A stretch of 61,365 nucleotides of DNA from a virus (IMGVR_UViG_3300008510_000002:1-61365), one strand, 5' to 3'. Positions 23,915-56,640 are shown, counted from the first letter of the stretch. The notes: generated by a model from the letters alone, not told the origin. Numbers and translations: made by a program.

Positions 23915-24256
23915 GATGGTGGCTTCCCGCGCCGCACCTTGGCGTGGCCTGATCGTACCCCACTACGGAGTCCCGCGTCAACGCCGGTTCTTTGGGTCCC
24001 ATTAAGGGGGTGGGTTCTCTGGGTCCCCTTTGGGGGTGGGTGCGCTATTTGGAGGGGGGATGCTTAGGCCCACTTTTATTTGGAGTGGGCTTAGGGATTT
24101 AGTACTAATAGCGGATTGGGGGTGTTCAACGGAAGTGGTCGTCGTTTGTCTGGAATACAGCGTAGCGAGCGGCGCGGGACTCCAAACGCTACGCGGGGGG
24201 TGGGGCTAGGGTGGGGGAGATTACCGGTAAACACACTCGCGGGAATCTGTAAGAGT

Positions 24257-24270
24257 GCTATAGTGCAACT
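24257..24270 (+). promoter_or_regulatory. Possible extended -10 early promoter (approximate coordinates)
   Basis: TGCTATAGT (TGn-TATAGT) upstream of the first plus-strand gene. Confidence 0.4.
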
Positions 24271-24332
24271 CATGGCGACGTCGTTGCCGTCGGGCCTAGA
24301 CGCACTAGGGGTAGCCACTAAAGGGGAACACC

Positions 24333-24896
24333 ATGGCTACACGTAAGATCGAGACCCCGGAGAGTCTCATTGCCGCGGCTATTGCCGCGGCACAAGCGGC
24401 AATTGCCGCTACCACCCGCGCGCGCGGGTTCTCCAAGACCTTTTGCGCGAAGGTACTCACTCTCGGCGCGCTCGGCGCCGCAGATGCCGCGCAAGCGGCC
24501 GAGACCCTTGCCAAGGGGCTAGAAGCCCTTGGCACGGGCGGGAAGGGGTACGCTTCGAATGCGAAGCGTATCCTCTCGGCAGGGCAGGTTGCCTGTCAAA
24601 AGGCGCTTGACTTCTGCACTGACCCCGCCAACGGCGGGTTCATGGCCCCGGGGAATTTGTTTAAGAAATTCCCCGATGATTTTCCGGCACTGTCCGACTC
24701 CGGTCGGACAAAGAAAACCACGGCCGGGGCCGTGGCGGAGGGAGTTGATCTCGGTCAACCTTCGGGTTGGCTGATTGCACTTGAGACCATCCGGGCGCGG
24801 GTTCCGGGCCGGAAAGACTGGCCATCCGGGGACATCATCGCGATGCAAGAATCGGCATCAGTGATGCTGGCGCTAATCAAGCGCAACAAGACCTAA
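24333..24896 (+). CDS. Hypothetical early protein
   Basis: 187 aa; AAGGGG RBS; followed by hairpin. Confidence 0.8.
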   Translation: MATRKIETPESLIAAAIAAAQAAIAATTRARGFSKTFCAKVLTLGALGAADAAQAAETLAKGLEALGTGGKGYASNAKRILSAGQVACQKALDFCTDPANGGFMAPGNLFKKFPDDFPALSDSGRTKKTTAGAVAEGVDLGQPSGWLIALETIRARVPGRKDWPSGDIIAMQESASVMLALIKRNKT

Positions 24897-24944
24897 CCAA
24901 CCTGCCCCCCGAAAGGGGGGCATTCAACCCGAAAGAGGAACACC

Positions 24945-25280
24945 ATGAACGTCAACATCCGCGCTGCCCTCGCCCTTGAGGCTTCGTGCCTCAAGACCCT
25001 CCGGGCCACGGAGGCATGGGATCCCGTGCCCCTTCTTAGGGGCATTGCTCGCGAAGTGACCCTCGCGGAGGACTTCGCGGGCGACTACAAGGATGCGATC
25101 GCGTCCTTGTCGGCACAGTTGGCCGACAAGATTTGGGGATACGAAGTCTTCGCGCGGACTTCGGCTGAACGTCGGGCGTATGCTCGGGTAAAGGAAGAGG
25201 CTTCCCGTAGGGGTCTCTTCAATGGGCACGATTGCCCGAGAGCCACATCGACAGCGTGGCAAGCATTGTTTGGGGGCTAA
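24945..25280 (+). CDS. Hypothetical early protein
   Basis: 111 aa; GAGGA RBS; followed by terminators. Confidence 0.75.
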   Translation: MNVNIRAALALEASCLKTLRATEAWDPVPLLRGIAREVTLAEDFAGDYKDAIASLSAQLADKIWGYEVFARTSAERRAYARVKEEASRRGLFNGHDCPRATSTAWQALFGG

Positions 25281-25302
25281 GCCCTCGAACGAAGCCCTAA
25301 CC

Positions 25303-25364
25303 AGCCCCGGCGAGTGCCGGGGCTTTTTTATTGCCCCCAGGGTTCGCGCCCTGGGGGCTTTTTT
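25303..25364 (+). terminator. Tandem intrinsic terminators
   Basis: AGCCCCGGC..GCCGGGGCT with T-tract, then GCCCCCAGGG..CCCTGGGGGC with T6. Confidence 0.88.
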
Positions 25365-25390
25365 GTGCCCGTTGGGACCGGGTGTCAGAA

Positions 25391-25460
25391 GCACGCAAGC
25401 GGCACGCGGGCACGCGGGCACGCGGGCACGCAAGCACGGCGCCCAATGGCGGCACGCAAG
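25391..25460. repeat. GCACGC(GG/AA) 8-bp tandem repeats
   Basis: GCACGCGG x3 from 25402, plus GCACGCAA at 25391, 25426 and 25452. Confidence 0.85.
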
Positions 25461-25644
25461 CACACGCAGGCTGCGCCCACACGGCCCGTCGCGGCACCAG
25501 ACGCTACGTTTACCAGTAAACACCGCCACCGGGCGGGCATTGCCCAGGGCGGACACCCGGTCCCCCACAGCACGCGAGCACGGCGCAGAGGCGGGGCGGC
25601 TCGATTTACTAGTAAATGCAGGGGCGAAAGCGGCCCGAGAGCAT

Positions 25645-25970
25645 TGTTCCTGATGTTCTGCGATGTTCCGGCGGAAGCGAGCACGCAAGTGCTTGATTTG
25701 GAAAGCGAAGTTCGTTTTGTTCGGATGTTCTATTATTTTTGAAAAAATGAAAAGGTAAGTAGGTAGGGGAAACTCTACTTTTACTTCACTCAAGCAGGAA
25801 ACCCTATAGGGGGATTAGGCACCTTGTCGATAATGACAGCGGTTTTCCGCCGCCAACCTTTTCATTCTTTTCCAAAAATACAGAACTTCCGGAACAGACC
25901 CCAAATTCCCTAGTCCTATCAACCACTTAGCCGTTCGACGCCGACCGAACATCGCCGAACATTCGGAACA
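25645..25970. other. Symmetric origin-like element
   Basis: 26-bp inverted repeats (25645-25670, 25945-25970), inverted IHF consensus sites (25686-25698, 25917-25929), AT-rich core, central CCCTATAGGG. Confidence 0.6.
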
Positions 25971-26103
25971 CAAGGACTTAGCAACCCCCCTGTCCACAAA
26001 GTCTGACCCGTCCCGCACCCAAAGCCCCCACCACCTGCTCAGGTACCCGCCGCTAGAGCCCCAAAGTCTACTACACTGCACATCACCTAACCCTGGAGCC
26101 CCC

Positions 26104-27048
26104 ATGAAACCTCTCGACATCGACTCAGTTCTTCAGCTCGTCACCCTGCGCGAAGACGGGCGCTGGCTCTTCAGCCAAGCTGCCCCTGAACGCCTGCGCG
26201 GCCTGCCCGTACCCAGCGCCGCAAACCCTCAAGGTACAGTGGTCTACTTCTTTCACGGCACCTATTACGCCGTTGGAGACCACTACGACCCCCTGCTCAA
26301 AGCCTACGCCGCCTTGGCCCCCGAAGCCCGCCAAGGGATCGGCAGTCTGGACCCTGGGGCGGTCGGCAGTGCCCACAGCACTATAAACATCGTGGACAAG
26401 TTGTCCCCTCTGGACACTTGGACTGCCTTTCGAGACCGTGCCATGCAGAACGCCGTCCGCCGCCTGATGAAGCGCACAGGTGCTGAGCAGTTCCAGGTGA
26501 TCCCTGCCGTAGCTAGCCTCTTCGACGTAGCCCCCCGGGTTGTGAAGAAGGCCATGGGCGGCCTGATCCACGAAGGGGGCTCAGAGCCGGACCACAAGAA
26601 AGACCACCGCTGGCGCTCAGTGGTTGCCGAAGCCCACCGCTCCAAGAGCAGTGCCTATGGCCGGGACACCATCAGAGCAGCCGGAACTGCTCCCCGCTAC
26701 GGCAGGTTCAGTGCTGAAGACCTGCTTATCAAACACCGTGGCGAACTGCTGTTCCCCGAGCGCTGCCCCGTGCTGGGCCTGCCGCTGATCTATGACAGAC
26801 ATAGTTACCCGAAAGACCTCCGGCTGATCTCCATAGCCCGAAGGGATCCCACCAAGCCCATGGCACCGGACAACGTGCATTTGGTGTCGCGCCGTGCCTA
26901 TAAACTCCTTGAGACCCGTTCCAAGCCGGAGACCCCCGAGGAGGCGGACGCTGTACAGCGTTGGCGAGCGGGGCTGTCGCCGGTGCCTAACGGCACCCTA
27001 ACACCAGTGCCTAACGGCACGACACTGGACGCTAAAGACTTGACATAA
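26104..27048 (+). CDS. Hypothetical protein with degenerate HNH-like endonuclease domain
   Basis: GGAG RBS; C-terminal CPVLGLPL...SIARRDPTKP...NVHLVS resembles CPxLG...SLDRID..KGY..GNV..IS. Confidence 0.65.
   Translation: MKPLDIDSVLQLVTLREDGRWLFSQAAPERLRGLPVPSAANPQGTVVYFFHGTYYAVGDHYDPLLKAYAALAPEARQGIGSLDPGAVGSAHSTINIVDKLSPLDTWTAFRDRAMQNAVRRLMKRTGAEQFQVIPAVASLFDVAPRVVKKAMGGLIHEGGSEPDHKKDHRWRSVVAEAHRSKSSAYGRDTIRAAGTAPRYGRFSAEDLLIKHRGELLFPERCPVLGLPLIYDRHSYPKDLRLISIARRDPTKPMAPDNVHLVSRRAYKLLETRSKPETPEEADAVQRWRAGLSPVPNGTLTPVPNGTTLDAKDLT
26983..27020. repeat. Two GTGCC-TAAC-GGCAC hyphenated palindromes, 24 bp apart
   Basis: Copies at 26983-26996 and 27007-27020, just upstream of the -35 box at 27040. 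Confidence 0.8.
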
Positions 27049-27068
27049 GGGTCTGTTTGTGTTACAAT
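27040..27068 (+). promoter_or_regulatory. Strong sigma70-type promoter
   Basis: TTGACA-17 nt-TACAAT with TG extension. Confidence 0.85.
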
Positions 27069-27074
27069 ATATGT

Positions 27075-27615
27075 ATTGGGTCGGAGATCAACGTCAACGA
27101 CCTGCCGCTCTTTAACAACCTGCACCGGCGTCGGCGTTTACCAGTAAACGCTATTGGCCGGGGTTTTGCATGCTTACCTATAAGCATGCTGACAAGATCA
27201 CTGAACCAACGGACGGTCCCCCGTCCATGCAAAACGTACACAAACGCACAGCCCCATGCTGGAAGGCAGTTACAACTATGGTTGACTCTGCCCGGTAGGA
27301 CATAGGGTGTGCGACAGAAGACGGGCTCGTGTTCAGTCCCTCGACGTGATCGGCGGTAAGAGACCGTTGACGCGTAGGCCACAGGGGAAAGACCCTGTGC
27401 AGGTGCAGGTGCCAACCTGAATGGCACCGACTGACCCACGGCAGCAAACCGTGGACCCGCAGGGGGTGGAAACACTCGCCCCCTGCTCAAAGTGCTTCGC
27501 TCCGCTTCGCGGATTTCGTCCGCCCCCTGGACCCCTAGGCCCCCTGCCGGGCACCGGCTCGGGCTGAGCCCCACAAACACCGTGCAGAGCACTTTGAGCA
27601 GCATGTGCTGCGAGA
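27075..27615 (+). ncRNA. Large structured non-coding RNA or leader of unknown family
   Basis: No credible ORF; more than 12 stems visible, including long-range 27118-27126/27402-27410 and 27485-27496/27588-27599. Confidence 0.65.
27106..27118 (+). promoter_or_regulatory. boxA antitermination element
   Basis: CGCTCTTTAACAA matches rrn/lambdoid boxA consensus; preceded by a GGTCG/CGACC hairpin. Confidence 0.75.
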
Positions 27616-27629
27616 ACCGGAGAGTTCAC

Positions 27630-27794
27630 ATGAACGCACTGTATTACGCGATGCGCTTCCGTGCGCAGGGTGGCACCCTGGAGCGGGATCTCGAGGCCGA
27701 CATGCGTCGGCTGGCGAAAGAACAGCTTCGTGCTGATTGTGAGGACGAGGTGGTGCCGTACGAGCCCACCCCGCTGGATGAGTATGACTTCTGA
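27630..27794 (+). CDS. Small hypothetical protein with acidic tail
   Basis: 54 aa; GGAGAGTTCACATG start cassette. Confidence 0.75.
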   Translation: MNALYYAMRFRAQGGTLERDLEADMRRLAKEQLRADCEDEVVPYEPTPLDEYDF

Positions 27795-27807
27795 AGGGAG
27801 AGTTCAC

Positions 27808-28083
27808 ATGGAGTATCAACAAGCCAAGGCCCTCGCGTGGGCCCTCGCCGCGCCGTCGATGACGGCCACTACCATCCCCCGCTATGCGGGTGGGCGGTAC
27901 AACACCCTCGGCGCGTACAGCGCCGCTTTGGCGCAAGTGTGCGCCGAGCACGGGGTCGAGTACGGGCCCGGGCAACCGACCGGAGACACGACGGACTACG
28001 TCCGTCAGCCGGTGTGCTGGTTCTTCGAGGACCAGACCGTGCCGGTGAGCATGGGCCATGGGGCCCTGATCATGCCGGCGTGA
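27808..28083 (+). CDS. Hypothetical protein
   Basis: 91 aa; same GGAGAGTTCACATG start cassette. Confidence 0.75.
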   Translation: MEYQQAKALAWALAAPSMTATTIPRYAGGRYNTLGAYSAALAQVCAEHGVEYGPGQPTGDTTDYVRQPVCWFFEDQTVPVSMGHGALIMPA

Positions 28084-28109
28084 GCATGTGAGTTAACTAG
28101 GAGAAAGAC

Positions 28110-28397
28110 ATGATCTATGTAGGTAACGCGTTCTCCCTGGGCATGGTGCCCAGGGACTTGCTGGGGCGGGTTCGTCTGACCCCGTGCGAGGCCCCCGCTA
28201 CGGCGGGGATGACTTCCTGTGTCGGCCATGCCGACACGGCGGCGGTGCTGGGCGTGCCGATGGCACGCATCAGTGTCGTGCTCAACGAGGGCGACGTGCT
28301 GTACGTCGCCCAGCTTCGCGGGGGTCGCCTTCCTGAAGGCACCACCACCCTGCCCGAGGGGTTCGGGTTCGATTGGGTCCGTGTGGAGGTAGTATGA
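28110..28397 (+). CDS. acrIII-1: AcrIII-1 / DUF1874 (STIV B116-like) viral ring nuclease
   Basis: NAFSLGM, VGHADTA, R-I-x-V-x-L-x-x-GD and RLPEG motifs in family order; AGGAG RBS. Confidence 0.82.
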   Translation: MIYVGNAFSLGMVPRDLLGRVRLTPCEAPATAGMTSCVGHADTAAVLGVPMARISVVLNEGDVLYVAQLRGGRLPEGTTTLPEGFGFDWVRVEVV

Positions 28398-28711
28398 ACA
28401 TCACCACCAACCGCATCCCCCGCCCCCTCCAGTGCCTGTCGGATCTCCCCAAGGGTGCCGCAAGGGGCTTCGACTACCTCGGCGAAGCCGAGGCCTACGA
28501 GGCACGCCTCGTGCAGTACAAGGGCGTCTGGTATGACGTGTATGACAGCATGCGCTGCCCCGGTGCCGAAGCGCCCGAGGCGACGCGCAACGCCTTCTCC
28601 GGCTGGGACGGCTACATCAGCGACAGTTTTTTCTCCGGCGTCCTGTTCCGCTTCGCGGGGGAGTCCGCCGCAGGCGGCGACCACGTCGTGGTGGGGCGTT
28701 ACTACTGCTGA
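28394..28711 (+). CDS. Hypothetical phage protein
   Basis: GGAGG RBS; ATGA overlap; WDGYISDSFFSG. Confidence 0.78.
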   Translation: MNITTNRIPRPLQCLSDLPKGAARGFDYLGEAEAYEARLVQYKGVWYDVYDSMRCPGAEAPEATRNAFSGWDGYISDSFFSGVLFRFAGESAAGGDHVVVGRYYC

Positions 28712-28730
28712 CCCAACAGAAAGTGTGATT

Positions 28731-29105
28731 ATGGGAGCTTTTGACGGACTACGCATCCCATACGCTCGCCCGTGGCCCCATCGTGAGGAGCCGTGCGGTA
28801 TCGAAAGCGGTAGTAGCGTTGCGTGGCGCGAACCGGAACCAGCGTATCTGTATCCGTGGGGGCGTAAAGAACGTAACCCCTTTTTCATTGGCCCGTATCC
28901 GAAGGAGAACCTCGTGAACAACTTGAGACAGTACGAAAAAGACGAGAGCAAGAATCTGCGCCGCATCATTGACGAGATGAATAACCTACATGCGCGTATG
29001 GGAGGTCGCGACAATCGCCCGGAGCGTATAGCGCTGACGCGTGCGATGAGTATCCTGCAAAAAGAGATTGACCGCTCCCTGGCGTGTGACGAAAGGCAAT
29101 CATGA
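28731..29105 (+). CDS. Hypothetical protein
   Basis: 124 aa; lower GC; overlaps next gene. Confidence 0.6.
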   Translation: MGAFDGLRIPYARPWPHREEPCGIESGSSVAWREPEPAYLYPWGRKERNPFFIGPYPKENLVNNLRQYEKDESKNLRRIIDEMNNLHARMGGRDNRPERIALTRAMSILQKEIDRSLACDERQS

Positions 29106-29326
29106 AAACCCACCCAAGAATCTCCGTCGCCGCATCAGCGGTGTGTGATTACATCGCCAACGGCGGATGGATCGGGGCATCCATGCCCTGGTACATCAAG
29201 GAGTGCCGACGCCTTCGTCCGGGCGAGTACCGCGCCGCGTGGAAGATCGCCAATGCCCGCTTCGGCGGGTACCTGGATGCGCTGAACAAGCGCAACTTCG
29301 CCAACGACAACGGCGAGACGTTCTAA
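29102..29326 (+). CDS. Hypothetical protein
   Basis: 74 aa; GAAAGG RBS. Confidence 0.7.
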   Translation: MKTHPRISVAASAVCDYIANGGWIGASMPWYIKECRRLRPGEYRAAWKIANARFGGYLDALNKRNFANDNGETF

Positions 29327-29385
29327 CCCAACCCGCCCCGCACGGGGCATAACCGGCACCACAGGTGCCTGAAAGGCGACAGACC

Positions 29386-29661
29386 ATGACCCGACAATCC
29401 ACAGCGGAAGCCTTCGTCCAAGGCGTACCGGGCGCGTGCCACAACGCGCACACCGATGGGCAGACGTACTACCTTCACGGGCATCCAATTGCAGTCCGGG
29501 AGGGTAAGAGCGTGGTGTTCTATTGGCACGGGTTCTATACCCGCACGACTGCCGCACACATGAACAAGGTGCTGAAGGCCCTCGGTGTGCGGTTCGCACA
29601 CATGTCCTGCGCCGCTGCCCGCGACGCCAAGGCGACGCACTGGGTGCTGGAACACATCTGA
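29386..29661 (+). CDS. Hypothetical phage protein
   Basis: LHGHPIA...TRTT..HMN; GAAAGGCGACAGACC start cassette. Confidence 0.75.
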   Translation: MTRQSTAEAFVQGVPGACHNAHTDGQTYYLHGHPIAVREGKSVVFYWHGFYTRTTAAHMNKVLKALGVRFAHMSCAAARDAKATHWVLEHI

Positions 29662-29684
29662 CCCCAACCCACGAAAGGAACACC

Positions 29685-29888
29685 GTGAACTGCCCCCGCT
29701 GCCAAGACCCCATCGACCCGCGCCGAGTCGCCCTTGGGCGCAGGCTGTGCCTGCCTTGTGGAGAGGAAGCCGCCCGCGAGGAGCGCACCGCCTGGACCAT
29801 CGTCCCGATGCACAAATCCAATTACGTCCTGCTCACTGACCGGCGTGACCTGCCGGGGATTGGGAACAAGGGCGGACTTTACCGTTAA
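29685..29888 (+). CDS. DksA/TraR-type C4 zinc-finger protein
   Basis: GTG start; CPRCQDPIDPRRVALG..LCLPC matches CxxC-x-x-x-I-x-x-x-R...CxxC spacing. Confidence 0.65.
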   Translation: MNCPRCQDPIDPRRVALGRRLCLPCGEEAAREERTAWTIVPMHKSNYVLLTDRRDLPGIGNKGGLYR

Positions 29889-29949
29889 ACACGTTTAACC
29901 GGGCTACGGCCCACCAACGGGCTACGGCCCACATGAAAGGCGACAGACC

Positions 29950-30552
29950 ATGAAATTCAACGAACTCTCCGACGACGCTAAGGACAAGGCCCGTGAATGG
30001 TGGCGTACTGACCTGCCGTTCGATACGGAGTACATCATCGACGACGCGGCGGACATCGCCGCCCTGTTCGGGCTGGACATAAGGCAGACGCCCAAGCACA
30101 ACACTGCCGGAGGTATCAACTGGGTGCCTACCGTCTACTGGTCAGGCTTCTGGAACCAGGGCGACGGTGCATCGTTCGATGGCAAATACAAGTACAAGGC
30201 CGGGGGGTTGAAGGCTGTCAAAGCCCACGCCCCGAAGGACGAGACACTGCACCGCATCGTGCAGCGGCTACAGGACGTTCAGCGTCGGTACTCCTACAAC
30301 CTCAGAGCCGATGTCAAACAGAACGGCAGGTACTGCCACGAGATGACGATGGGGATAGACGTTACACACTACCGTGACCGTGAGGTGGAGCGCGATGACG
30401 AGGAGGAAATCATTGACTGCCTGCGTGACTTCGCCCGGTGGATCTACCGCCAGCTTGAAGCTGAGTGGGAGTACCAGAACAGCGACGAGGCGGTGGACGA
30501 AGCGCTCATCGCCAACGAGTACGAGTTCGACGAAGACGGTAAGCGGATCTAA
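29950..30552 (+). CDS. Acidic conserved phage/mobile-element protein
   Basis: FNELSDDAKDKAREW, SGFWNQGDGA, IYRQLEAEWEY..SDE, NEYEFDEDG. Confidence 0.8.
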   Translation: MKFNELSDDAKDKAREWWRTDLPFDTEYIIDDAADIAALFGLDIRQTPKHNTAGGINWVPTVYWSGFWNQGDGASFDGKYKYKAGGLKAVKAHAPKDETLHRIVQRLQDVQRRYSYNLRADVKQNGRYCHEMTMGIDVTHYRDREVERDDEEEIIDCLRDFARWIYRQLEAEWEYQNSDEAVDEALIANEYEFDEDGKRI

Positions 30553-30590
30553 CCACAACCACGCCCCCTGCCGGGGCCTGAAAGGACGGT

Positions 30591-30788
30591 ATGAAAGTCG
30601 GAGATCACTACCCAACGTGGTTTAGTGGTAAAGACAACGGGTACTCAACGGTACTGGCGGTCTTGCCCTACACCGGGCGCTACCCACAATGGTTCAACTG
30701 CGTTCTTCGTCTAACCGCACCTAACACAGGGCGCGGATGGTTAGAAATGGCTGTCCAACTGGAGCCCACAACCCGGAGCCAACCATGA
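30591..30788 (+). CDS. Hypothetical protein
   Basis: 65 aa; GAAAGGA RBS. Confidence 0.7.
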   Translation: MKVGDHYPTWFSGKDNGYSTVLAVLPYTGRYPQWFNCVLRLTAPNTGRGWLEMAVQLEPTTRSQP

Positions 30789-30940
30789 AACTCGAAGCTA
30801 CCCACCTTCGTGGGAACCTATGGGCTGTCAAGCCAGAGAATCAACTGGGCACCTGCGGGTGGTACCCCCGCCCATGGACGGTGCAGTACATCAGAGCACA
30901 TTCCGCCGAAGAGGCGGTGAGAAAGGCGAAGCAACCATGA
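30785..30940 (+). CDS. Hypothetical protein
   Basis: 51 aa; ATGA overlaps at both ends. Confidence 0.65.
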   Translation: MKLEATHLRGNLWAVKPENQLGTCGWYPRPWTVQYIRAHSAEEAVRKAKQP

Positions 30941-31173
30941 AACTCAACATCGAAGTCACCGACACATTCGGACACGAGCCCAACTACGCATGGGTGCGCA
31001 GAGCCACGCTGGAAGTCCCCGACCTGCTGAGCAGGTATGCCCGCGTCCGCAGAGCCAAGGCCGCTGTCGGCTGGACAGGCAAGCGCTGCGTCACCGTGGA
31101 CTACGGTGACATGATCGAACTCCGCCCGCACGGGGAATGCCTCGTGTGTTTTATTACCTTCGAGCATCCCTGA
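30937..31173 (+). CDS. Hypothetical phage protein
   Basis: EVTDTFGHEPNYAWVRR; ATGA overlap. Confidence 0.72.
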   Translation: MKLNIEVTDTFGHEPNYAWVRRATLEVPDLLSRYARVRRAKAAVGWTGKRCVTVDYGDMIELRPHGECLVCFITFEHP

Positions 31174-31233
31174 CCCCGGGCCACGGTGCCCACAACCCCC
31201 AGGGCCACCGGCCCCAACCCGAAAGAGGATCAC

Positions 31234-32181
31234 ATGAACATCTCGAACACAGTTGGTATTGCCTCCGCTGCCATGATCGGAAGCCTGAACATATCTGTGT
31301 GGGAAGCACGGAAGCTTGATCGCAATACTCAGGCGGAAGTGTTGGCAACCAAGGGTGCCAAGTCCCGCCGTGCGGCAACGGTCAGCAAGCACTTGTTCTC
31401 GGAGTGCCCCGCACTGGAAGCCATCAAGACCTTGCGCGGGGAGGCCCGCGTCTGGTTCAACAACGCTACCCTGCCCTGGGACGACAACGGCGGCAGGCTG
31501 ATCACCACGGCGCAGTACGTGCGGGTGATGGACCAAGCGACCCGCTATGAACAACGCTTCTCCTCCCTGGTGGAGACGTTTTTGTCGGTCTACCAAACCG
31601 AGATCAGCAAGCAGGCCTTCGAGATGGGCTCCCTGTTCGACCGCTCCGAGTACCCTCCGCCGAACGAAGTCCGGGGCAAGTTCCGCTTCGGGCTGTCCGT
31701 CAGCCCGGTGCCTCTGGCCGGGGACTTCCGTGTGGACATCGGCAACGAAGCTGCCGCCCAACTCAAGGCGCAGTACGAGAAGGCCATGGAGCAGCGCGTG
31801 GCCGGTGCCGTGTCCGACACATGGCAGCGCATCAAGCAGCAGGTCGAGTGGGTGCACGAGCGGATGACCGCCGTGCTGGAGCATGACCCGGACGCGGTTG
31901 AACAACTTCCCACCGTCGATGAGAACGGGGTTGTCGTTCGAGTGGACATCAAGAAGAAGCGTCGCCCCAAGCTGTACGACTCGATGCTGGAGCAGGGGCT
32001 CGAACTGTGCGAACTCCTGAAGGACCTCAACGTCACCAACGATCCACGACTCGAAGCCGCACGGCAGGACCTCGAAGCTGCCCTCACCCGGGTGGACCTG
32101 GACTCACTCAAGGAGAGCACCGAACTCCAACGTGCGACCAAGTCCGCCATGCAGGACATTCTCGACAAGTTCGCCCTCTGA
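31234..32181 (+). CDS. DUF3150-like helical protein
   Basis: 315 aa; TLPWDDNGGRLI, EYP....RGKF, LNVTNDPRL; upstream of the AAA/vWA pair. Confidence 0.6.
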   Translation: MNISNTVGIASAAMIGSLNISVWEARKLDRNTQAEVLATKGAKSRRAATVSKHLFSECPALEAIKTLRGEARVWFNNATLPWDDNGGRLITTAQYVRVMDQATRYEQRFSSLVETFLSVYQTEISKQAFEMGSLFDRSEYPPPNEVRGKFRFGLSVSPVPLAGDFRVDIGNEAAAQLKAQYEKAMEQRVAGAVSDTWQRIKQQVEWVHERMTAVLEHDPDAVEQLPTVDENGVVVRVDIKKKRRPKLYDSMLEQGLELCELLKDLNVTNDPRLEAARQDLEAALTRVDLDSLKESTELQRATKSAMQDILDKFAL

Positions 32182-32239
32182 TTTACTGTTAAACGTGTTT
32201 AACCCAGCCCCCTACGGGGGGCATCTCTAGGAGCACACC

Positions 32240-50926: not shown

Positions 50927-51001
50927 GCTGGCCGCATGTTGGGCCGGTGTCTCCCTCCTAGTTGGCCCCCGGGTTGAGCTTGCTCCTCGGGGGCATTTTT
51001 T
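50927..51001 (+). ncRNA. Candidate trans-acting antisense sRNA
   Basis: TTGGCA-18 nt-TATAGT upstream (50891-50920); 5' hairpin, unpaired TGTCTCCCTCCTAGTT seed, terminator. Confidence 0.55.
50965..51001 (+). terminator. Intrinsic terminator at the convergence of early and late units
   Basis: GCCCCCGGG...CTCGGGGGC then ATTTTTT. Confidence 0.75.
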
Positions 51002-54000
51002 CACCGGAGGTCGATCTCCGCTTGGTTGATCTGCGCCTGCCGGCGCAGGGCGTAGCTGATCTGCGCAAGCTCGTTCTGCTGCGCACGCAAGGTGTTCATG
51101 ATCTGGCGGCGCTCGTCAGGCGGGATGTCCTTCGCACGGTCAACAACCTGCGCTTCGCGGTTCAAGTCCCGGATGCTCTCCATCACCGCCTTGGTGGCTT
51201 CGTAAACGCTGTATCTACCGTAGTTCTCAAGCAGGTATGCGTCGGCCTTTTCCGGTGCAGTCTGCACCAGTCGGTTGTAGGTGTTGTACGCCTGAGTAAC
51301 TTTGTCCTCGAAGTCGTACATGTCATCCAGGAACCGAGTACCCACAGGATCCTTCATGAAGGCACTGGCACCGGTAAGCTGAGCAGCCAAGTGCTGGTGC
51401 AGTGGACGATCTGTCCGCGTCGGGTTGACCATCACATCAGCCACAGACAGCGCCACCCCCGCCGACATGCCCAGCACACCCCGGATCGCGTTCTCGATCT
51501 TGATGGGGGAAAGCTCAATGCCAAGCTGGGCCAGAGCTTCCGCCGATGCTTTGACGGCTTCCGAGGTGCCGGTGCCGAAGCGCTGCGAGGGGTCCAGCCG
51601 CAGTTGGGATTGCGACTCCAGAGGCCGGCCCAGGAAGAACGAGTGGTTCATCATGTTCTCAAGGAACGGCTTCACAAGCTGAGGCGTCAGGTTCGGCGCC
51701 CAGAAGATGTCCACGCCCGACAGCATCAACTCCCGCGCCACCCTGAGGGCATCGCGCTCTTCGGGGGTCCCCTGGAGCTTGTAGTACTGCACCACCCGTT
51801 CAGGGATAGCCTTGAAGAAGAACGACAGTTCAGGCGGCACAGGGATGACCGGTGTGAAGCCAAGCTCCTTGCCGTAGGGCAGGACCCAGTTGCGGTCCCG
51901 CACATGGTCAGGCAGGTTCTGGTACTCCTCATCGTCGGACATCAGCAGGGCGTAGCTGAGCCCCATGGCGGTCAGGATGCCCATCCGCTTGAAGAACAGG
52001 TTGCGAGCGTAACCCGTGGCAACGCCGACCGTCTTACCGCCAGCAGCGGCCAGGAGAAGCTTGTCCATCGACCGGGCGTAGGCGTTGAAGAAGGGGATCG
52101 TGCGGATGAAGAAGTCCGCCGTAGTGGAGGCGCCCCGCCGTGAGAAGTTGATGATCTCCCGTGCGCGGGACTCGGCCAGCGCCACGTCGCCGGTCTCCTT
52201 CATGGTCTGGTCGTAGATGGCTTGGCGTACGGACACATCCGATGCCTTGGCACCCGCCTCCAGGATGCGCAGGATGGCGCGGCCCAGGGACCGCTTGCTG
52301 ATGCCTGTCTCCTCGAAGATGTTGCGGACGTTGCCACCTTCCACGGTGTCATAGGCTGGTACAACCCCATGCTGCGCAAGTTTTGCCACCCCCGGACTGC
52401 GCGTACCTTTGATCTCGTTCCACCAGTTGCGCGGCATGTTAGAGAGGATGCGAGGAATCAACGCCATGGGGTTCTTCACCCCCGAATGGACGTAACCACG
52501 GGTAATGTCGTCAGAAATCTGCTTGACTGCGAAGGCCGGTGTAATGGTGACGCCGATACGGAGGACCTGGGACAGTTTCTGCGCCGCACGCATGAAGCTG
52601 CCAATCTGCATGGACTTGGCCCCCGCAAAAGCAGCCAGATTCGCCGGGTCAGGGACGTAGTAGAACTTCTGCTGGCCTTTCTGCCAAGACGATACCACTG
52701 CACCCTTCTGACTTTGGGGCATTTGGTCTCGACCGCGAGGCAAATACTTGGCTGCACCCACAAGCTCCAGATCGCGCAGGGCTCGGCCTACGGCCTCGGC
52801 TTTCATCCCTTCCCGTGTCATCCACTCCATGAGACCGACGAAGTTCTTGATCGGGTTCTCGGTCTGTCGTTCGGAAGAGCCTTTGAACTCCTTCATCTGC
52901 TTGAAGGCGGCGAGCTTGAAGTTGGTGGACACACCCCCTTGCCCCTGTGAAACATAGAACTTGTCCAGTTCTTCAATGCGTTTGAAAGGGGTATAGGCCG
53001 TGGCTTCTTTCCACTCTTTTGCCTTGTCCTTGGTGATGCGCCCTGTAGCTACCAAGAAGTCAAGTCCAGCAAAACGAATGGCGTCCATCTTTTCGCTCAC
53101 ATCTTTGATGAAAGCGTCATTGCTGAACTTCTCGTTGGCTGCTTCAGCTTCCTCAGGCGTGAGGTAAAACTCCAGTTTCACTTCCCGAGCATCGTTGTCC
53201 TTCATGAGTTCGTACTCACGACGGCCCGCCAAGACTTCACCGATCTCCTTGACAAACTGCCCAGGTGCCTGCCCTCGGCGTTGGGCTTCTGCCGCTATGT
53301 CGCGCAGGACACCCTCAAAGGAAATCTTTTGCCCGTTGTAGTCAAGTTCTGTAATGCGCGAAAGTCCGCTGGGGTCTACTACGATGGTGCCTACCCGAAG
53401 CATCTCTTGGGCGAAGCGCGGAGCATCCAGCGCCTGGGACAGCAGAACGACGGGGTTCATGTTCCCCGAGTTGTCGCGGATGCTGTTGCTGTAGAGGTAG
53501 CCCATCTCAGCCTCGACCCCGGCCAAGGAGTCAGTGGCTTGTGCACGCAGCCCGATGGTCTTGCGCTCGCCCAGCGTCCGCCCGATGGCATCACCAGCAG
53601 TGGCTTCGGTGCGTTCACCGACAAGCGCGTCAGAAAGAGTCATCCCCGCAGCAGATTCTGCTTGCCTAAAATACGAGGTAAGAGGTTCATCGAACACGCC
53701 TTCGGAGATTGTCATCAACTCTGCAAGTGCGGAACCTTCCCTTTTGTTCAGTTTGAGAATTTGGGATATTAGGTCGAAGAACCTGCCGAGGAAAGTGCCC
53801 CCAGTAGGACTAGGTGTAGACGCAAGCCAGTTTTGGAAGTCAGCATTCACGAGCCCATAGGTTATAAGCTCATAGGGGTCTTTGAGTGCGCGTTTGAATA
53901 GTTGCTCTTGGAAGTCGCTAAGCTCACCAGCTTTATTCTGTTCTCTAAATATGGGGACGAGATCTCTGTGTAGCAGCTTCAGCTTCATAGCCGCACTGCT

Positions 54001-56640
54001 CTGCGGCGCAAACCTAATTTGCGCGACGGTGACCGCGTGGATCAGTTCATGAACTAGCGTTTCCTGCCTAAGCGTGTTTCGTGCAGACCCCGTGTACCCG
54101 TTTACCGTTACGCTTACATCTAATGTCCTACTGAACTCAGCTTTTCCCCGCGCAGCGGGTAACGACTGCCCAGGTGGTGTTAGTGCGAATGAAAATTTCA
54201 CCTCCGCGTCCGCCATTTCTTCGGCGCGACGTTTTACCTTAACCAGCACAGCGCGGTCAAGATCATCACGAGCGTTCAGGATTGCGTAGTCAATAGCCTC
54301 CATAAACGACTTCCCACGAAGGGCGTCGTCCATTTCCCGGGAATTGGGGAGGCTTGAAAGCTCAAACCGTGTTTGCGGGAATTTTGGTCCCGGCGTAGGA
54401 GTGGACGCAACAGGAGCGCGAGCAGCGGTGGGGGGCGGAGCGGGGACCTCCAGGGTAGCGGCAGCAGGAAGCGCGGCGGGAACCTCCGGAGTAGCAGGGG
54501 CAGCAGGGGCAGCAGGGGCAGCAGGGGCAGCAGAAACTTTCGGGCTAACAGAGGGCTCAGCGCCATACTTCCTGAGTAGCTCCCGCGCAGCATTGATGTG
54601 CTTCGCACCGGGTTTGATCCTATTCCCGGTCTCGTCAACATGCTCTTCGACGTAGGCGTCGTATTCCTCCTGGGACATGCGTCCAGAGATACGCTCAACC
54701 TCCTCAGCGAGATCCCCGCGTTGCTCAGGTGTGAGGTCAGTAGGTGCCGGGGCTGGGGCCTCGGTCACTGCAGCGGGCTGCTCTCCTTCTCCTGCAGCAG
54801 GGCGTCCAGCATCCTCGACAGGAGGAACCACTCGTACTGGCTCAGCGGCTCCAACTCCTTCGGCGGGGCTGACGGCAGCGGGTCCGCCAGCCACTGAAAC
54901 GCCTGCTCCAATTCGCTCTGGTTCAGTTGGAATACTGGGCGCACTTGGGGTCTCCGTGATTGGTGCCGGGGCAGCTTCTGGTGCTGAGGCAGCTTCTGGT
55001 GCTGAGGCAGCAGTCTCAGCCTCCACCGTGGGCGTGATGGGTTCAGGCAAACGCGCAACGAAGGCGTCAATCTTAGCCGCTGTTTTGGAGCTGGTTGTGC
55101 GCTCCTTCGCGTCCTCAAGAATGGTGCGAATCTCAGGGTCGGTGATGGACTTGCCGACCAAGGCGTCATGGATCCTGCCCCTGGTGAAACCGATGGTCCT
55201 GATAGTGGCACTGTCCAGCACATCCGGCAGGGGTGCGGGCCCTCGTACGGTCGGCTCTTCCACCGTAGGCGTTGTGGGTTCCGTGGCCGTGGGCGGCGGC
55301 AGAGTGGGCGTCCAGCGCCCACCACCGATCTCAACCAGACGAGCGTCAAGCTCATCGAAGCGACGACGCGCCGGGGTCTTGGGGGCTGGGGGCTTACCCT
55401 TGACGAGCAAGCCTTCTCGTTGCGCCCGCAGGCGGGCGATCTCCTCGCGCCGTGCCTCAGTGGGGTCGAACTCTTCCCGGGGCGTCACGCCCTGTGCAGC
55501 GGCTTCCTCAGCCGTCAGGAACCCTTCAGCCACCTTCTTCCCGGCGCGGGCACGCTCGGTGTCTTCCCGTTGCCTGCGGGCGCGTTCTGCCTCAAGCTCA
55601 CGGATCGCCGCGTTGCGCTCCTTGGACTCCGGCCGCTGCTTGAGGGTCTCGATCTCCTGTGTCAGTCTCGGGTAAGCCTCGGTGATGGGCTGCGCCAAGG
55701 TCTCGTCAATGACGGTCTGGGCACGGTTGATAGGTTCGCGCTTGGCTTCCGCTTTGGCAGCGATCTCGGCTGCCTGCTCACGACGCAGTCGCTCGACCGG
55801 CAGTTCCCCGGGTGGGCCTTCGGGTACACCTTCAGCCGGCGCAGCGCCAGCACCCGCTCCGCGTGCTCGACGCCCAAGCGCAAGGTCCATCAGCCCCTGA
55901 ACGATTGCACCGGTGGCGCCGCCGTAGGCAGCCTGCTCGCCAAGGCCCTCGATGAGTTCCTGCTCCGGTTTGTACACCCCACGGGCGATCATGTTCTGGG
56001 CAAGGCCCGATGCGGCTTCCTGTGCGGCTTCCTCGCCGGCTGCCTGGAGCACTCGCTTGACCTTGGCCGCTGCGGTCAGCACCTCCCCTTCGGGGATGCG
56101 AGACAGGATCCTGAACGGCGCGAAGACTTCCAAGGCGCCAGGGATGGTGCCCAGAGCGGTTGCAGTGCCCCGCTGCTCCTCAGTAGCGCCCTCAGCCTCC
56201 GCCCGGGTTCGCGCTTCGCCTGCGCCGGCTCCAACGCCCAGACCCACAGCCGCTGCGCGGCCAGCCAAACCAAGAGGCCCCGCCAACAGGAAGGGGATCG
56301 TGGAGCCTACGGCCTCCGTGACTTTTCTCGGGATGCTCTCTTCGTACCCCGGCGCCGGGGCGAAGGGCGCCTTGGCGGCGCCAGCAACCCTGGCAATCGC
56401 TTCCCGAGCGGCACGCTCTTGCTCCTCCGGCAGGAGGGCGGATGCACCGATGGCAGCGCTCTCGACCAGACCGACAGCACCAGGGATCAGGCCCTTGAAG
56501 GCTTCGCCTACTTGCCCGAAGAACGTGGTCTCGGGGGCAACTCCCAACACCTTTTTTACAGTGGCTTGGATGACCCGCGGATCGGTTCCGTCAGGAAACT
56601 CCAAGATCCGTCCATCGTGCAGTTGGGCTTGAACCGGCAT
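51001..56640 (-). CDS. Large polyvalent ejection protein (HExxH peptidase-like domain, C-terminal LPD38-like domain)
   Basis: 1879 aa; LEFPDGT N-terminus; LVHELIH; NFSRRG, IPFFNA, YQNLP...NW, IPVPPEL. Confidence 0.8.
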   Translation of the reverse strand: MPVQAQLHDGRILEFPDGTDPRVIQATVKKVLGVAPETTFFGQVGEAFKGLIPGAVGLVESAAIGASALLPEEQERAAREAIARVAGAAKAPFAPAPGYEESIPRKVTEAVGSTIPFLLAGPLGLAGRAAAVGLGVGAGAGEARTRAEAEGATEEQRGTATALGTIPGALEVFAPFRILSRIPEGEVLTAAAKVKRVLQAAGEEAAQEAASGLAQNMIARGVYKPEQELIEGLGEQAAYGGATGAIVQGLMDLALGRRARGAGAGAAPAEGVPEGPPGELPVERLRREQAAEIAAKAEAKREPINRAQTVIDETLAQPITEAYPRLTQEIETLKQRPESKERNAAIRELEAERARRQREDTERARAGKKVAEGFLTAEEAAAQGVTPREEFDPTEARREEIARLRAQREGLLVKGKPPAPKTPARRRFDELDARLVEIGGGRWTPTLPPPTATEPTTPTVEEPTVRGPAPLPDVLDSATIRTIGFTRGRIHDALVGKSITDPEIRTILEDAKERTTSSKTAAKIDAFVARLPEPITPTVEAETAASAPEAASAPEAAPAPITETPSAPSIPTEPERIGAGVSVAGGPAAVSPAEGVGAAEPVRVVPPVEDAGRPAAGEGEQPAAVTEAPAPAPTDLTPEQRGDLAEEVERISGRMSQEEYDAYVEEHVDETGNRIKPGAKHINAARELLRKYGAEPSVSPKVSAAPAAPAAPAAPATPEVPAALPAAATLEVPAPPPTAARAPVASTPTPGPKFPQTRFELSSLPNSREMDDALRGKSFMEAIDYAILNARDDLDRAVLVKVKRRAEEMADAEVKFSFALTPPGQSLPAARGKAEFSRTLDVSVTVNGYTGSARNTLRQETLVHELIHAVTVAQIRFAPQSSAAMKLKLLHRDLVPIFREQNKAGELSDFQEQLFKRALKDPYELITYGLVNADFQNWLASTPSPTGGTFLGRFFDLISQILKLNKREGSALAELMTISEGVFDEPLTSYFRQAESAAGMTLSDALVGERTEATAGDAIGRTLGERKTIGLRAQATDSLAGVEAEMGYLYSNSIRDNSGNMNPVVLLSQALDAPRFAQEMLRVGTIVVDPSGLSRITELDYNGQKISFEGVLRDIAAEAQRRGQAPGQFVKEIGEVLAGRREYELMKDNDAREVKLEFYLTPEEAEAANEKFSNDAFIKDVSEKMDAIRFAGLDFLVATGRITKDKAKEWKEATAYTPFKRIEELDKFYVSQGQGGVSTNFKLAAFKQMKEFKGSSERQTENPIKNFVGLMEWMTREGMKAEAVGRALRDLELVGAAKYLPRGRDQMPQSQKGAVVSSWQKGQQKFYYVPDPANLAAFAGAKSMQIGSFMRAAQKLSQVLRIGVTITPAFAVKQISDDITRGYVHSGVKNPMALIPRILSNMPRNWWNEIKGTRSPGVAKLAQHGVVPAYDTVEGGNVRNIFEETGISKRSLGRAILRILEAGAKASDVSVRQAIYDQTMKETGDVALAESRAREIINFSRRGASTTADFFIRTIPFFNAYARSMDKLLLAAAGGKTVGVATGYARNLFFKRMGILTAMGLSYALLMSDDEEYQNLPDHVRDRNWVLPYGKELGFTPVIPVPPELSFFFKAIPERVVQYYKLQGTPEERDALRVARELMLSGVDIFWAPNLTPQLVKPFLENMMNHSFFLGRPLESQSQLRLDPSQRFGTGTSEAVKASAEALAQLGIELSPIKIENAIRGVLGMSAGVALSVADVMVNPTRTDRPLHQHLAAQLTGASAFMKDPVGTRFLDDMYDFEDKVTQAYNTYNRLVQTAPEKADAYLLENYGRYSVYEATKAVMESIRDLNREAQVVDRAKDIPPDERRQIMNTLRAQQNELAQISYALRRQAQINQAEIDLR

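Follow-up and report, generated by a model that had tools for sequence, protein, structure and literature searches.

The rightward operon of the viral genome analysed here is headed by what is probably a Nus/boxA-type leader, to which a large new RNA is attached. This RNA represents a new modular family without a match in Rfam, which is carried by a clade of uncultured phages with genomes near 60 kb in size. Throughout, the window refers to the whole stretch of DNA that was analysed, a viral record of 61,365 bp with an estimated completeness of 97%. A sequence-only reading of the same DNA had proposed that a consensus promoter and boxA are followed by a large, densely paired non-coding RNA of a new kind, and the strong covariation and negative Rfam searches support this and show that the RNA is conserved. 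The likeness that it drew to free-standing RNAs such as GOLLD and ROOL does not hold, since the RNA runs into a ribosome-binding site without a terminator; because no terminator precedes that site, the molecule is a 5' leader, at least as first made.

Genes at 1-23.9 kb of the window lie on the minus strand and are structural (terminase, portal, and tail fibre), and those at 24.3-50.7 kb lie on the plus strand and comprise small unannotated ORFs together with a MoxR-type ATPase, a DUF2201 protein, a DNA polymerase (33-36% identical to Rhizobium and Pseudomonas phage polymerases), a helicase, and a primase. ARAGORN detected neither tRNA nor tmRNA genes. The leader is located near the beginning of the rightward arm, between a 314-aa ORF, whose stop codon falls within the -35 hexamer of the leader promoter, and a 54-aa ORF, and about 23 kb of rightward operon (27.6-50.7 kb) extends downstream of it. 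The 314-aa protein gave only sub-threshold HNH and HTH leads (Atlas), and neither RuvC nor any other family was found in it. A HEARO/IscB-like RNA tied to this HNH-like ORF was considered and rejected, as there was no Rfam match, the RNA has its own promoter, and it lies downstream of the ORF. The ORFs downstream of the leader carry no functional annotation in PHROGs or Pfam, and the designation 'anti-defence operon' given to them earlier is not supported. Terminator-like hairpins occur downstream of the leader in 10 of the 14 members examined, the window copy being at 31127-31148.

The leader is built as a chain that runs from P1 through boxA, P2 (with P2a), P3, P4 (with domain B), P5, P6, P7, variable hairpins, P8, P9 (with a variable insert), and P10 to the ribosome-binding site. 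Its elements and the flanking ORFs are as follows, with positions in the window.

26104-27048, plus strand: upstream 314-aa ORF with a weak HNH-like match
27040-27068, plus strand: sigma-70 promoter, with -35 TTGACA at 27040-45, a 17-nt spacer with TG, and -10 TACAAT at 27063-68
27079-27102, plus strand: P1, hairpin at or near the 5' end, GGTCG/CGACC (27079-83/27098-102), with the conserved loop start GGAGATC
27107-27118, plus strand: boxA, exact GCTCTTTAACAA, about 32 nt past the inferred start
27125-27161, plus strand: P2 (CCGGC/GCCGG) enclosing P2a (27133-41/27144-51), the top of which is the palindrome TTTACCAGTAAA
27168-27189, plus strand: P3, hairpin GCATGCTTA/TAAGCATGC with loop CCTA
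27190-27198, plus strand: J3/4, single strand TGACAAGAT, invariant or nearly so in alignment A5
27200-27337, plus strand: P4, ACTGAAC (27200-06) with GTTCAGT (27331-37), closing the optional domain B
27338-27375, plus strand: J4/5 (CCCTCG), then P5, 12 bp (27344-48 and 27350-56 with 27364-70 and 27371-75) with one bulged A
27376-27399, plus strand: J5/6 (AGGC), then P6, CACAGGG/CCCTGTG (hairpin 27380-27399), with the invariant loop GAAAGA
27400-27428, plus strand: J6/7 (beginning GCAGGT), then P7, GGTGCCA/TGGCACC, with loop ACCTGAA
27458-27486, plus strand: P8, GC-rich hairpin CGCAGGGGG/CCCCCTGC, capped by GTG-GAAA-CAC
27485-27599, plus strand: P9, long-range helix of 12-13 bp (27485-97/27587-99) around a variable multi-hairpin insert
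27598-27611, plus strand: P10, nearly invariant hairpin GCAGCATGTGCTGC, directly preceding the ribosome-binding region
27612-27632, plus strand: ribosome-binding region and start codon, GAGAACC-GGAGAG, with the ribosome-binding site at 27619-24 and ATG at 27630
27630-27794, plus strand: 54-aa ORF, the first gene after the leader, with its ATG at 27630 behind GGAGAG

The promoter TTGACA-17-TACAAT, which the earlier reading had recognized, agrees with the consensus at 11 of 12 positions and has the TG in addition, and it is the best promoter-like site within 23-31 kb. The pattern TTGACA-17-TAnnnT is kept in all 22 leaders whose 5' end is intact. The inferred transcription start lies near 27075, about 555 nt from the ATG at 27630. 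The hairpin described upstream of boxA is present at 27079-83/27098-102; one to three hairpins precede boxA in all 20 members folded, and the P1 stem changes from GUCG/CGAC to GUUG/CAAC in L039 and L040. The boxA named in that reading is confirmed as an exact GCTCTTTAACAA at 27107-27118, and a boxA is found in 24 of 24 leaders, at 26-81 nt past the inferred start. Compared with GYTCTTTAANA, the published gamma-proteobacterial boxA consensus (PMC5725501), which may not be that of the host, 17 of the 24 are exact, six have one mismatch, and one has two. The number of boxA sites across the window is at chance level (two sites with at most two mismatches against 2.14 expected), and the weight given to boxA thus derives from its conservation in all 24 family members rather than from its count in the window. 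It is predicted to be mostly single-stranded on emergence (median unpaired probability 0.74, n = 20), and the 15 nt that follow it read CCTGCACCGGCGTCG in the window and TTCATCACCGGGAGG or a similar sequence in relatives.

Relatives were found via the neighbouring DUF2201 protein and then by pattern scans of viral and metagenome contigs with the most conserved stretch. After removal of duplicates, 24 distinct leaders were available, namely that of the window and 23 others (L005-8, L010, L015, L016, L020, L025-29, L031, L032, and L034-41); three of the 24 are cut by contig ends, and 22 have an intact 5' end. Members measure 406-598 nt between the inferred start and the 3' side of the last hairpin. 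The phrog_5162 relatives L002-L004 have no leader. In GenBank phages, neither the DNA of 26900-27800 nor the protein of the upstream ORF had a match. A search of viral contigs with an exact 21-mer from the boxA region was equally negative, and the core pattern was absent from 185,579 bacterial and archaeal genomes, so that no prophage or host copy was found. In distant relatives, nucleotide matches within 25400-29000 occur only inside the leader. The upstream protein is only 25-57% identical, and the first downstream gene often differs between members while the leader and its ribosome-binding context stay, GAACACCGGAGAG being kept in most members even where the first gene is a different one. 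Because it provides the only nucleotide match between genomes whose neighbouring genes diverge or differ, the leader with its ribosome-binding context is regarded as a portable, strongly constrained module.

Within this module, the degree of conservation varies from element to element. The stem sequence of P2a differs between members, and P3 has a conserved top and a covarying base. At least six sequence versions of P4 exist, among them AUCGGAC/GUUCGAU, AGUAGAC/GUUUACU, ACUAAGC/GCUUAGU, and ACCGG/CCGGU. Domain B, which P4 closes, forms a long stem of irregular pairing, in which an internal loop that sets GGAA against CGGTAG is conserved; the domain is missing in L016 and short in L005-7, L015, L026, and L031. 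The most widely kept element is P5, with GGTAAGARWCC in 24 of 24 members. Its 7-nt loop, TAAGAGA at 27357-63 in the window, has the invariant family form UAAGARW, which we take to fit the T-loop pattern in general terms, with U at position 1, a purine at position 4, A at position 5, and a G-C pair closing the loop. A kissing interaction of this loop with the P3 top or with the TTTACC palindromes was considered, for which complementarity exists in TTTACC-type phages; it was rejected because, in L041-type phages, the P3 loop and the palindromes differ and the P5 loop is unchanged. P6 is missing in L010, L036, L039, and L040, and P7 is missing in the distant members L036, L039, and L040 and not kept in L037 and L041. 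In the window, the AGGT of J6/7 could pair with the ACCT of the P7 loop.

Covariation provides evidence that P3, P4, P5, P6, P7, and P9 are formed in the RNA. In the core comprising P5-P7, 17 of 26 pairs are compensatory in a model-fitted alignment of 17 sequences, 94.5% of cells are paired compared with 32-46% when the partners are slid by 1-3 columns, and none of 500 shuffles reaches the observed covariation score; P6 and P7 each have compensatory changes at five of seven pairs. This model-fitted alignment is biased towards its own structure, a bias from which the tests based on plain MAFFT alignments are free. In the latter, six of nine pairs of P3 (15 sequences; 5'-domain alignment without L015 and L035, which have large insertions) and eight of 11 pairs of P9 (15 sequences; 3'-domain alignment without L035) are compensatory. 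For domain B with P4, the figure is 22 of 46 pairs predicted by RNAalifold from 11 sequences. The pairs of P2, P8, and P10 never vary, and these helices are therefore covariation-neutral, neither supported nor contradicted. G-U and U-G pairs are common, one P5 pair being U-G in 17 of 17 sequences; since such pairs would be mismatches on the opposite strand, the folded RNA is that of the plus strand.

These alignments also decide which of the helices drawn from the window alone belong to the family. The promoter, hairpin, boxA, absence of an ORF, and folding that had been described stand, and several of the helices do not stand as conserved structure. The hairpin with a GAAA-type cap is real and covaries (P6, 27380-27399), as does the 12-bp stem closing a second multi-hairpin domain, which is P9 with its 12-13 bp. 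The 9-bp stem 27118-26/27402-10 can form in the window, where only two of 500 shuffles match it, but it is not conserved in the family; in its place, relatives show a weaker, shifted 8-bp pairing that is rich in A-U and G-U, overlaps P7, and is weak in L005, L035, and L010. In many members, the segment after P6 can pair over 8 bp, chiefly A-U and G-U, with the 3' half of boxA, the boxA side of the pairing being without variation. The junction helix GTTTTGCA/TGCAAAAC is likewise present in the window but not in the family, where its 3' half pairs inside domain B with covariation. ACTGAAC and GTTCAGT do pair and covary, not as a pseudoknot but as the nested helix P4, and the pairing of GATCAC with GTGATC needs a C that is present only in the window among the 17 sequences of alignment A2.

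No credible ORF exists in the ~510 nt past boxA, in agreement with the first description: plus-strand ORFs are 37-82 aa long, and none is kept in relatives. A 180-aa ORF on the minus strand (27062-27604) is not kept either, the longest stop-free stretch there ranging from 68 to 187 aa and falling below 100 aa in 11 of 24 members. The dense pairing that had been noted is borne out by the comparison with shuffles, in which 561 nt from 27070 gave z-scores of -5.42 (plus strand) and -4.31 (minus strand) and none of 100 shuffles folded as well. In a sliding scan, windows of the leader reach z -2.6 to -5.2 against -0.3 to -1.1 in the upstream gene. Some coding windows nearby reach z -5 to -9, and the folding z-score alone is thus not specific; the ORF at 24333-24896 folds with z of about -9, yet encodes a conserved protein. 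At the RNA level, an rRNA-depleted metatranscriptome run contained one 151-nt contig that is identical over 27304-27421, and a second run, the RNA nature of which is a guess, contained contigs over parts of 27105-27626. The contigs (runs X20 and X19) cover parts of the leader only and almost nothing in the flanks. They are those of relatives on the most conserved DNA and are only a hint of expression; such sparse coverage, confounded as it is with conservation, does not suffice to demonstrate expression or to place transcript ends.

At Rfam 15 gathering thresholds, no match was obtained in the whole window or in the loci of six relatives, so that the check for known families which had been called for came out negative. 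Even at E up to 10, the region 26900-27800 gave only three chance-level matches (E 1.4-9.9), all on the minus strand. The classes without a match include GOLLD, ROOL, OLE, HEARO, riboswitches, ribozymes, tmRNA, RNase P, and introns. Our literature search yielded no report of a phage leader that is structured, begins with boxA, and reaches such a size. The IMG/VR survey of Fremin et al. 2023 reports 8,495 RNA candidates of 29-151 nt (PMC10690425), and fragments of the leader may be listed among them.

Regarding function, the favoured explanation, to which about an even chance is assigned, is a cis-acting, Nus-dependent antitermination leader of the main early operon that confers Rho-resistant elongation via boxA. 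As described in PMC12360218, boxA in nascent RNA recruits NusB/NusE and, with other Nus factors, gives rise to Rho-resistant complexes in rrn operons and in lambda. In the phage leader, boxA would recruit host NusB/NusE and other Nus factors to RNA polymerase soon after initiation, in an rrn-like manner, and the polymerase would then escape Rho-dependent termination over ~500 nt of untranslated RNA and the ~23-kb operon. A further host or phage factor, or the polymerase itself, may dock on the invariant loops of P5 and P6 (UAAGARW and GAAAGA), and P8-P9-P10 may form a module for processing and stabilization, after whose action the mRNA would begin with a hairpin. Antitermination is favoured because of the rrn-like order of hairpins, single-stranded boxA, and long untranslated structured RNA, together with the 23-kb operon; transcription of a long untranslated leader would otherwise be ended by Rho, which fits the need for antitermination. 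Such a mechanism needs boxA and little else, and it consequently leaves ~400 nt of conserved structure unexplained, for which reason three rivals are retained: an RNA that is processed and acts in trans, a sensor, and a boxA with a negative role as in suhB. It is also conceivable, albeit improbable, that the leader is a self-sufficient RNA device, in which boxA loads the Nus factors and the invariant P5/P6 core replaces an N-type protein or forms part of a decoy released at P9. The core would then dock with RNA polymerase, a ribosomal protein, or a Nus protein, or alternatively would divert a host RNA-binding factor as a decoy acting in trans.

A related proposal, considered unlikely to a similar degree, is that the leader mainly gives rise to a stable RNA acting in trans: a cut within or close to P9 would free P1-P8, the loops of which would bind, sequester, or redirect a host protein or RNA, and boxA would serve only to shield the untranslated precursor from Rho. 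This would account for a conserved core with invariant loops that far exceeds what a nut-type site needs, for the independence of the module from the identity of the downstream gene, and for the 5'-terminal hairpin and the perfect 12-20-bp helix adjoining the mRNA, as expected at a processing site. The RNA-library contigs, which match the leader and not the flanking genes, point weakly in the same direction, the leader being also the most conserved DNA. However, the leader has no terminator at its end, its ribosome-binding context is conserved as part of the module, and no target was found, the match of the P5 loop to the recurring palindromes failing in L041-type phages. The highly conserved junctions and loops amid covarying stems are also typical of aptamers, and a sensor (a riboswitch or protein-binding attenuator), whose core would bind a metabolite, ion, or protein and thereby switch early transcription or translation, could use the one alternative pairing available, in which the 5' arm of P7 joins the 3' half of boxA. 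That pairing lacks covariation support, an Rfam search relaxed to E 10 gave no riboswitch, the leaders show neither a conserved terminator nor a conserved anti-ribosome-binding-site element, and whole modules (domain B, P6, and P7) are dispensable in some members, all of which makes a sensor quite improbable. In the suhB leader, boxA is described as also able to promote Rho termination or repress translation (PMC12360218), and boxA-dependent repression is documented in PMC5725501 as well. Nus binding might accordingly lower translation of the first gene or promote Rho termination, limiting early expression, and the minimum-free-energy fold of the window leader does pair boxA with the Shine-Dalgarno region. 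Here, however, boxA lies ~500 nt from the ribosome-binding site, whereas suhB-type sites were searched within 50 nt of the start codon (PMC5725501), and high expression is suggested by the strong consensus promoter in front of a long operon, so that a negative role is rated very unlikely. An element acting at the DNA level, such as an operator cluster, replication origin, or packaging site whose hairpins are palindromic protein-binding sites, might be suspected from the 12-nt palindrome TTTACYNGTAAA, which occurs at seven intergenic sites against 0.24 expected, one of them within the leader (27137-48). The stems below the conserved palindrome covary, most helices are not palindromes shared between sites, and many G-U pairs would turn into A-C mismatches if the opposite strand were the folded one; because the covariation is strand-specific, a purely DNA-level element is given hardly any credence. 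The palindrome TTTACYNGTAAA may nevertheless be a separate protein site embedded in the RNA.

Like rrn leaders, the phage leader has a hairpin near the promoter and then a boxA, predicted to be single-stranded and in agreement with the gamma-proteobacterial GYTCTTTAANA (which may not be the consensus of the host), heads a long untranslated structured RNA, and carries a long-range helix near its end. The consensus boxC of rrn leaders is GU-rich and lies downstream of boxA; the phage leader has no such element past boxA, and unlike an rrn leader it is a 5' UTR ending in a ribosome-binding site. We know of no counterpart of the P5/P6 core in rrn leaders. The rrn-type complex has been described as acting against Rho, and the hairpins downstream of the phage leader are intrinsic-terminator-like. 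With the pL/N leader of lambda, which contains nutL and a processing hairpin before the N start, it shares the succession of early promoter, boxA, structured RNA, and first early gene, as well as, presumably, the phage use of host Nus factors. It is more than twice as long as the lambda leader and, unlike lambda nut, has no boxB-type hairpin (with an A-rich, GNRA-like pentaloop) beside boxA, the loops of P2a and P3 being different; the only A-rich loop in the leader is the GAAAGA hexaloop of P6, ~270 nt downstream of boxA. A further difference is that there is a single site per genome, with one core-model match in the window. An N-like arginine-rich protein was not found in a crude screen, in which none of the 20 early ORFs scanned matched an antiterminator family and arginine-rich windows were found mostly in overlapping, probably spurious frames.

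Other systems resemble the leader in part. HK022 put and Bacillus EAR are RNA-only processive antiterminators of ~70-120 nt without boxA, and put is a two-hairpin RNA acting on the polymerase without protein factors. The phage leader is likewise a cis-acting structured RNA just past a promoter and could modify the polymerase without a dedicated phage protein. GOLLD, ROOL, OLE, HEARO, and raiA are similar in their size of 400-600 nt, many conserved helices, optional modular domains, and phage or metagenome origin; in contrast to them, the leader is fused to an mRNA, carries boxA, has no Rfam model match, and is mostly a string of hairpins rather than a set of large multi-way junctions. The T7 early leader combines strong host promoters, a non-coding leader, and an RNase III site before gene 0.3. 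In both leaders, one or more host-type early promoters are separated from the first early gene by a long non-coding stretch, and just before that gene comes a double-stranded processing site, for which P9 is the candidate here. To our knowledge, the T7 leader is not a conserved multi-hairpin fold with invariant loops.

The leader family would add a large structured RNA from uncultured phages to a very short list, and the alignment and structure suffice for a family model with which such phages can be annotated, whatever the function. Its sigma-70 promoter and gamma-proteobacterial boxA make the leader transferable to a laboratory host for read-through testing. Processive antitermination in phages is known in three forms, namely protein-dependent nut sites, small put RNAs, and Q-type DNA sites. 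If the antitermination reading is true, a covarying leader of 400-600 nt that joins an rrn-type boxA with invariant loops would be a further solution to antitermination, and if the leader is a self-sufficient RNA device, a large phage RNA would be reprogramming host transcription with no phage protein involved.

The structured leader RNA, which extends from an inferred start near 27075 to the ATG at 27630 and heads the early operon, lies downstream of an arrangement that recurs among related viral and metagenome contigs, comprising the following elements:

25303-24, intrinsic terminator followed by a T run
25333-58, second, tandem intrinsic terminator, likewise followed by a T run
26104-27048, gene for a 314-aa protein, syntenic and upstream of every leader

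The terminator pair is constantly placed 0.7-1.7 kb 5' of the leader in the relatives, and together with about 60 nt on its 3' side (25302-25425) it retains 82-88% identity in nearly all of them. The stretch of approximately 740 nt that separates the terminators from the 314-aa gene (25360-26103) lacks a credible ORF and contains GCACGCGG repeats and an A+T-rich part; within this stretch, 120 nt at 25645-25768 are 80-82% identical in L005, L007, and L035. The 314-aa protein, whose identity among relatives is just 25-57%, has an HNH-like C-terminal part without obvious catalytic histidines, and the stop codon of its gene falls within the -35 hexamer of the leader promoter.

In the minimum-free-energy fold of the leader, the 5' half of boxA (27107-13) pairs with the Shine-Dalgarno region (27619-25), a predicted interaction that would close the whole leader. 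Because each of these segments is constrained for other reasons, covariation is uninformative on their pairing. The ORF at 24333-24896 also folds strongly (z of about -9 against shuffles), owing to its many perfect short hairpins; it encodes a conserved protein, to which the counterparts in L015, L022, L025, and L029 are about 51% identical at the amino-acid level.

On the minus strand, a 1879-aa virion protein (51001-56640) weakly matches phrog_2206, the N4-type virion RNA polymerase family, over residues 856-1003 (E 3.6e-10).

The 12-nt palindrome TTTACYNGTAAA occurs at seven sites within 24220-32193 with at most one mismatch, compared with 0.24 expected, and all seven copies are intergenic and located in the early region:

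24220, 25509, 25605, 27137, 29878, 30621, 32182, TTTACYNGTAAA palindrome sites

Downstream of two of these copies lie another palindrome, GTTAAAC-NN-GTTTAAC, and a GC hairpin that precede a ribosome-binding site. In L041/L042, GTTAAAC..GTTTAAC is itself the recurring palindrome, with five copies. The 5' part of the leader always holds one copy of the recurring palindrome, at a position that varies from phage to phage. The recurring palindrome looks like a phage-specific site at which a protein would bind, or like a promoter or operator motif of the phage.
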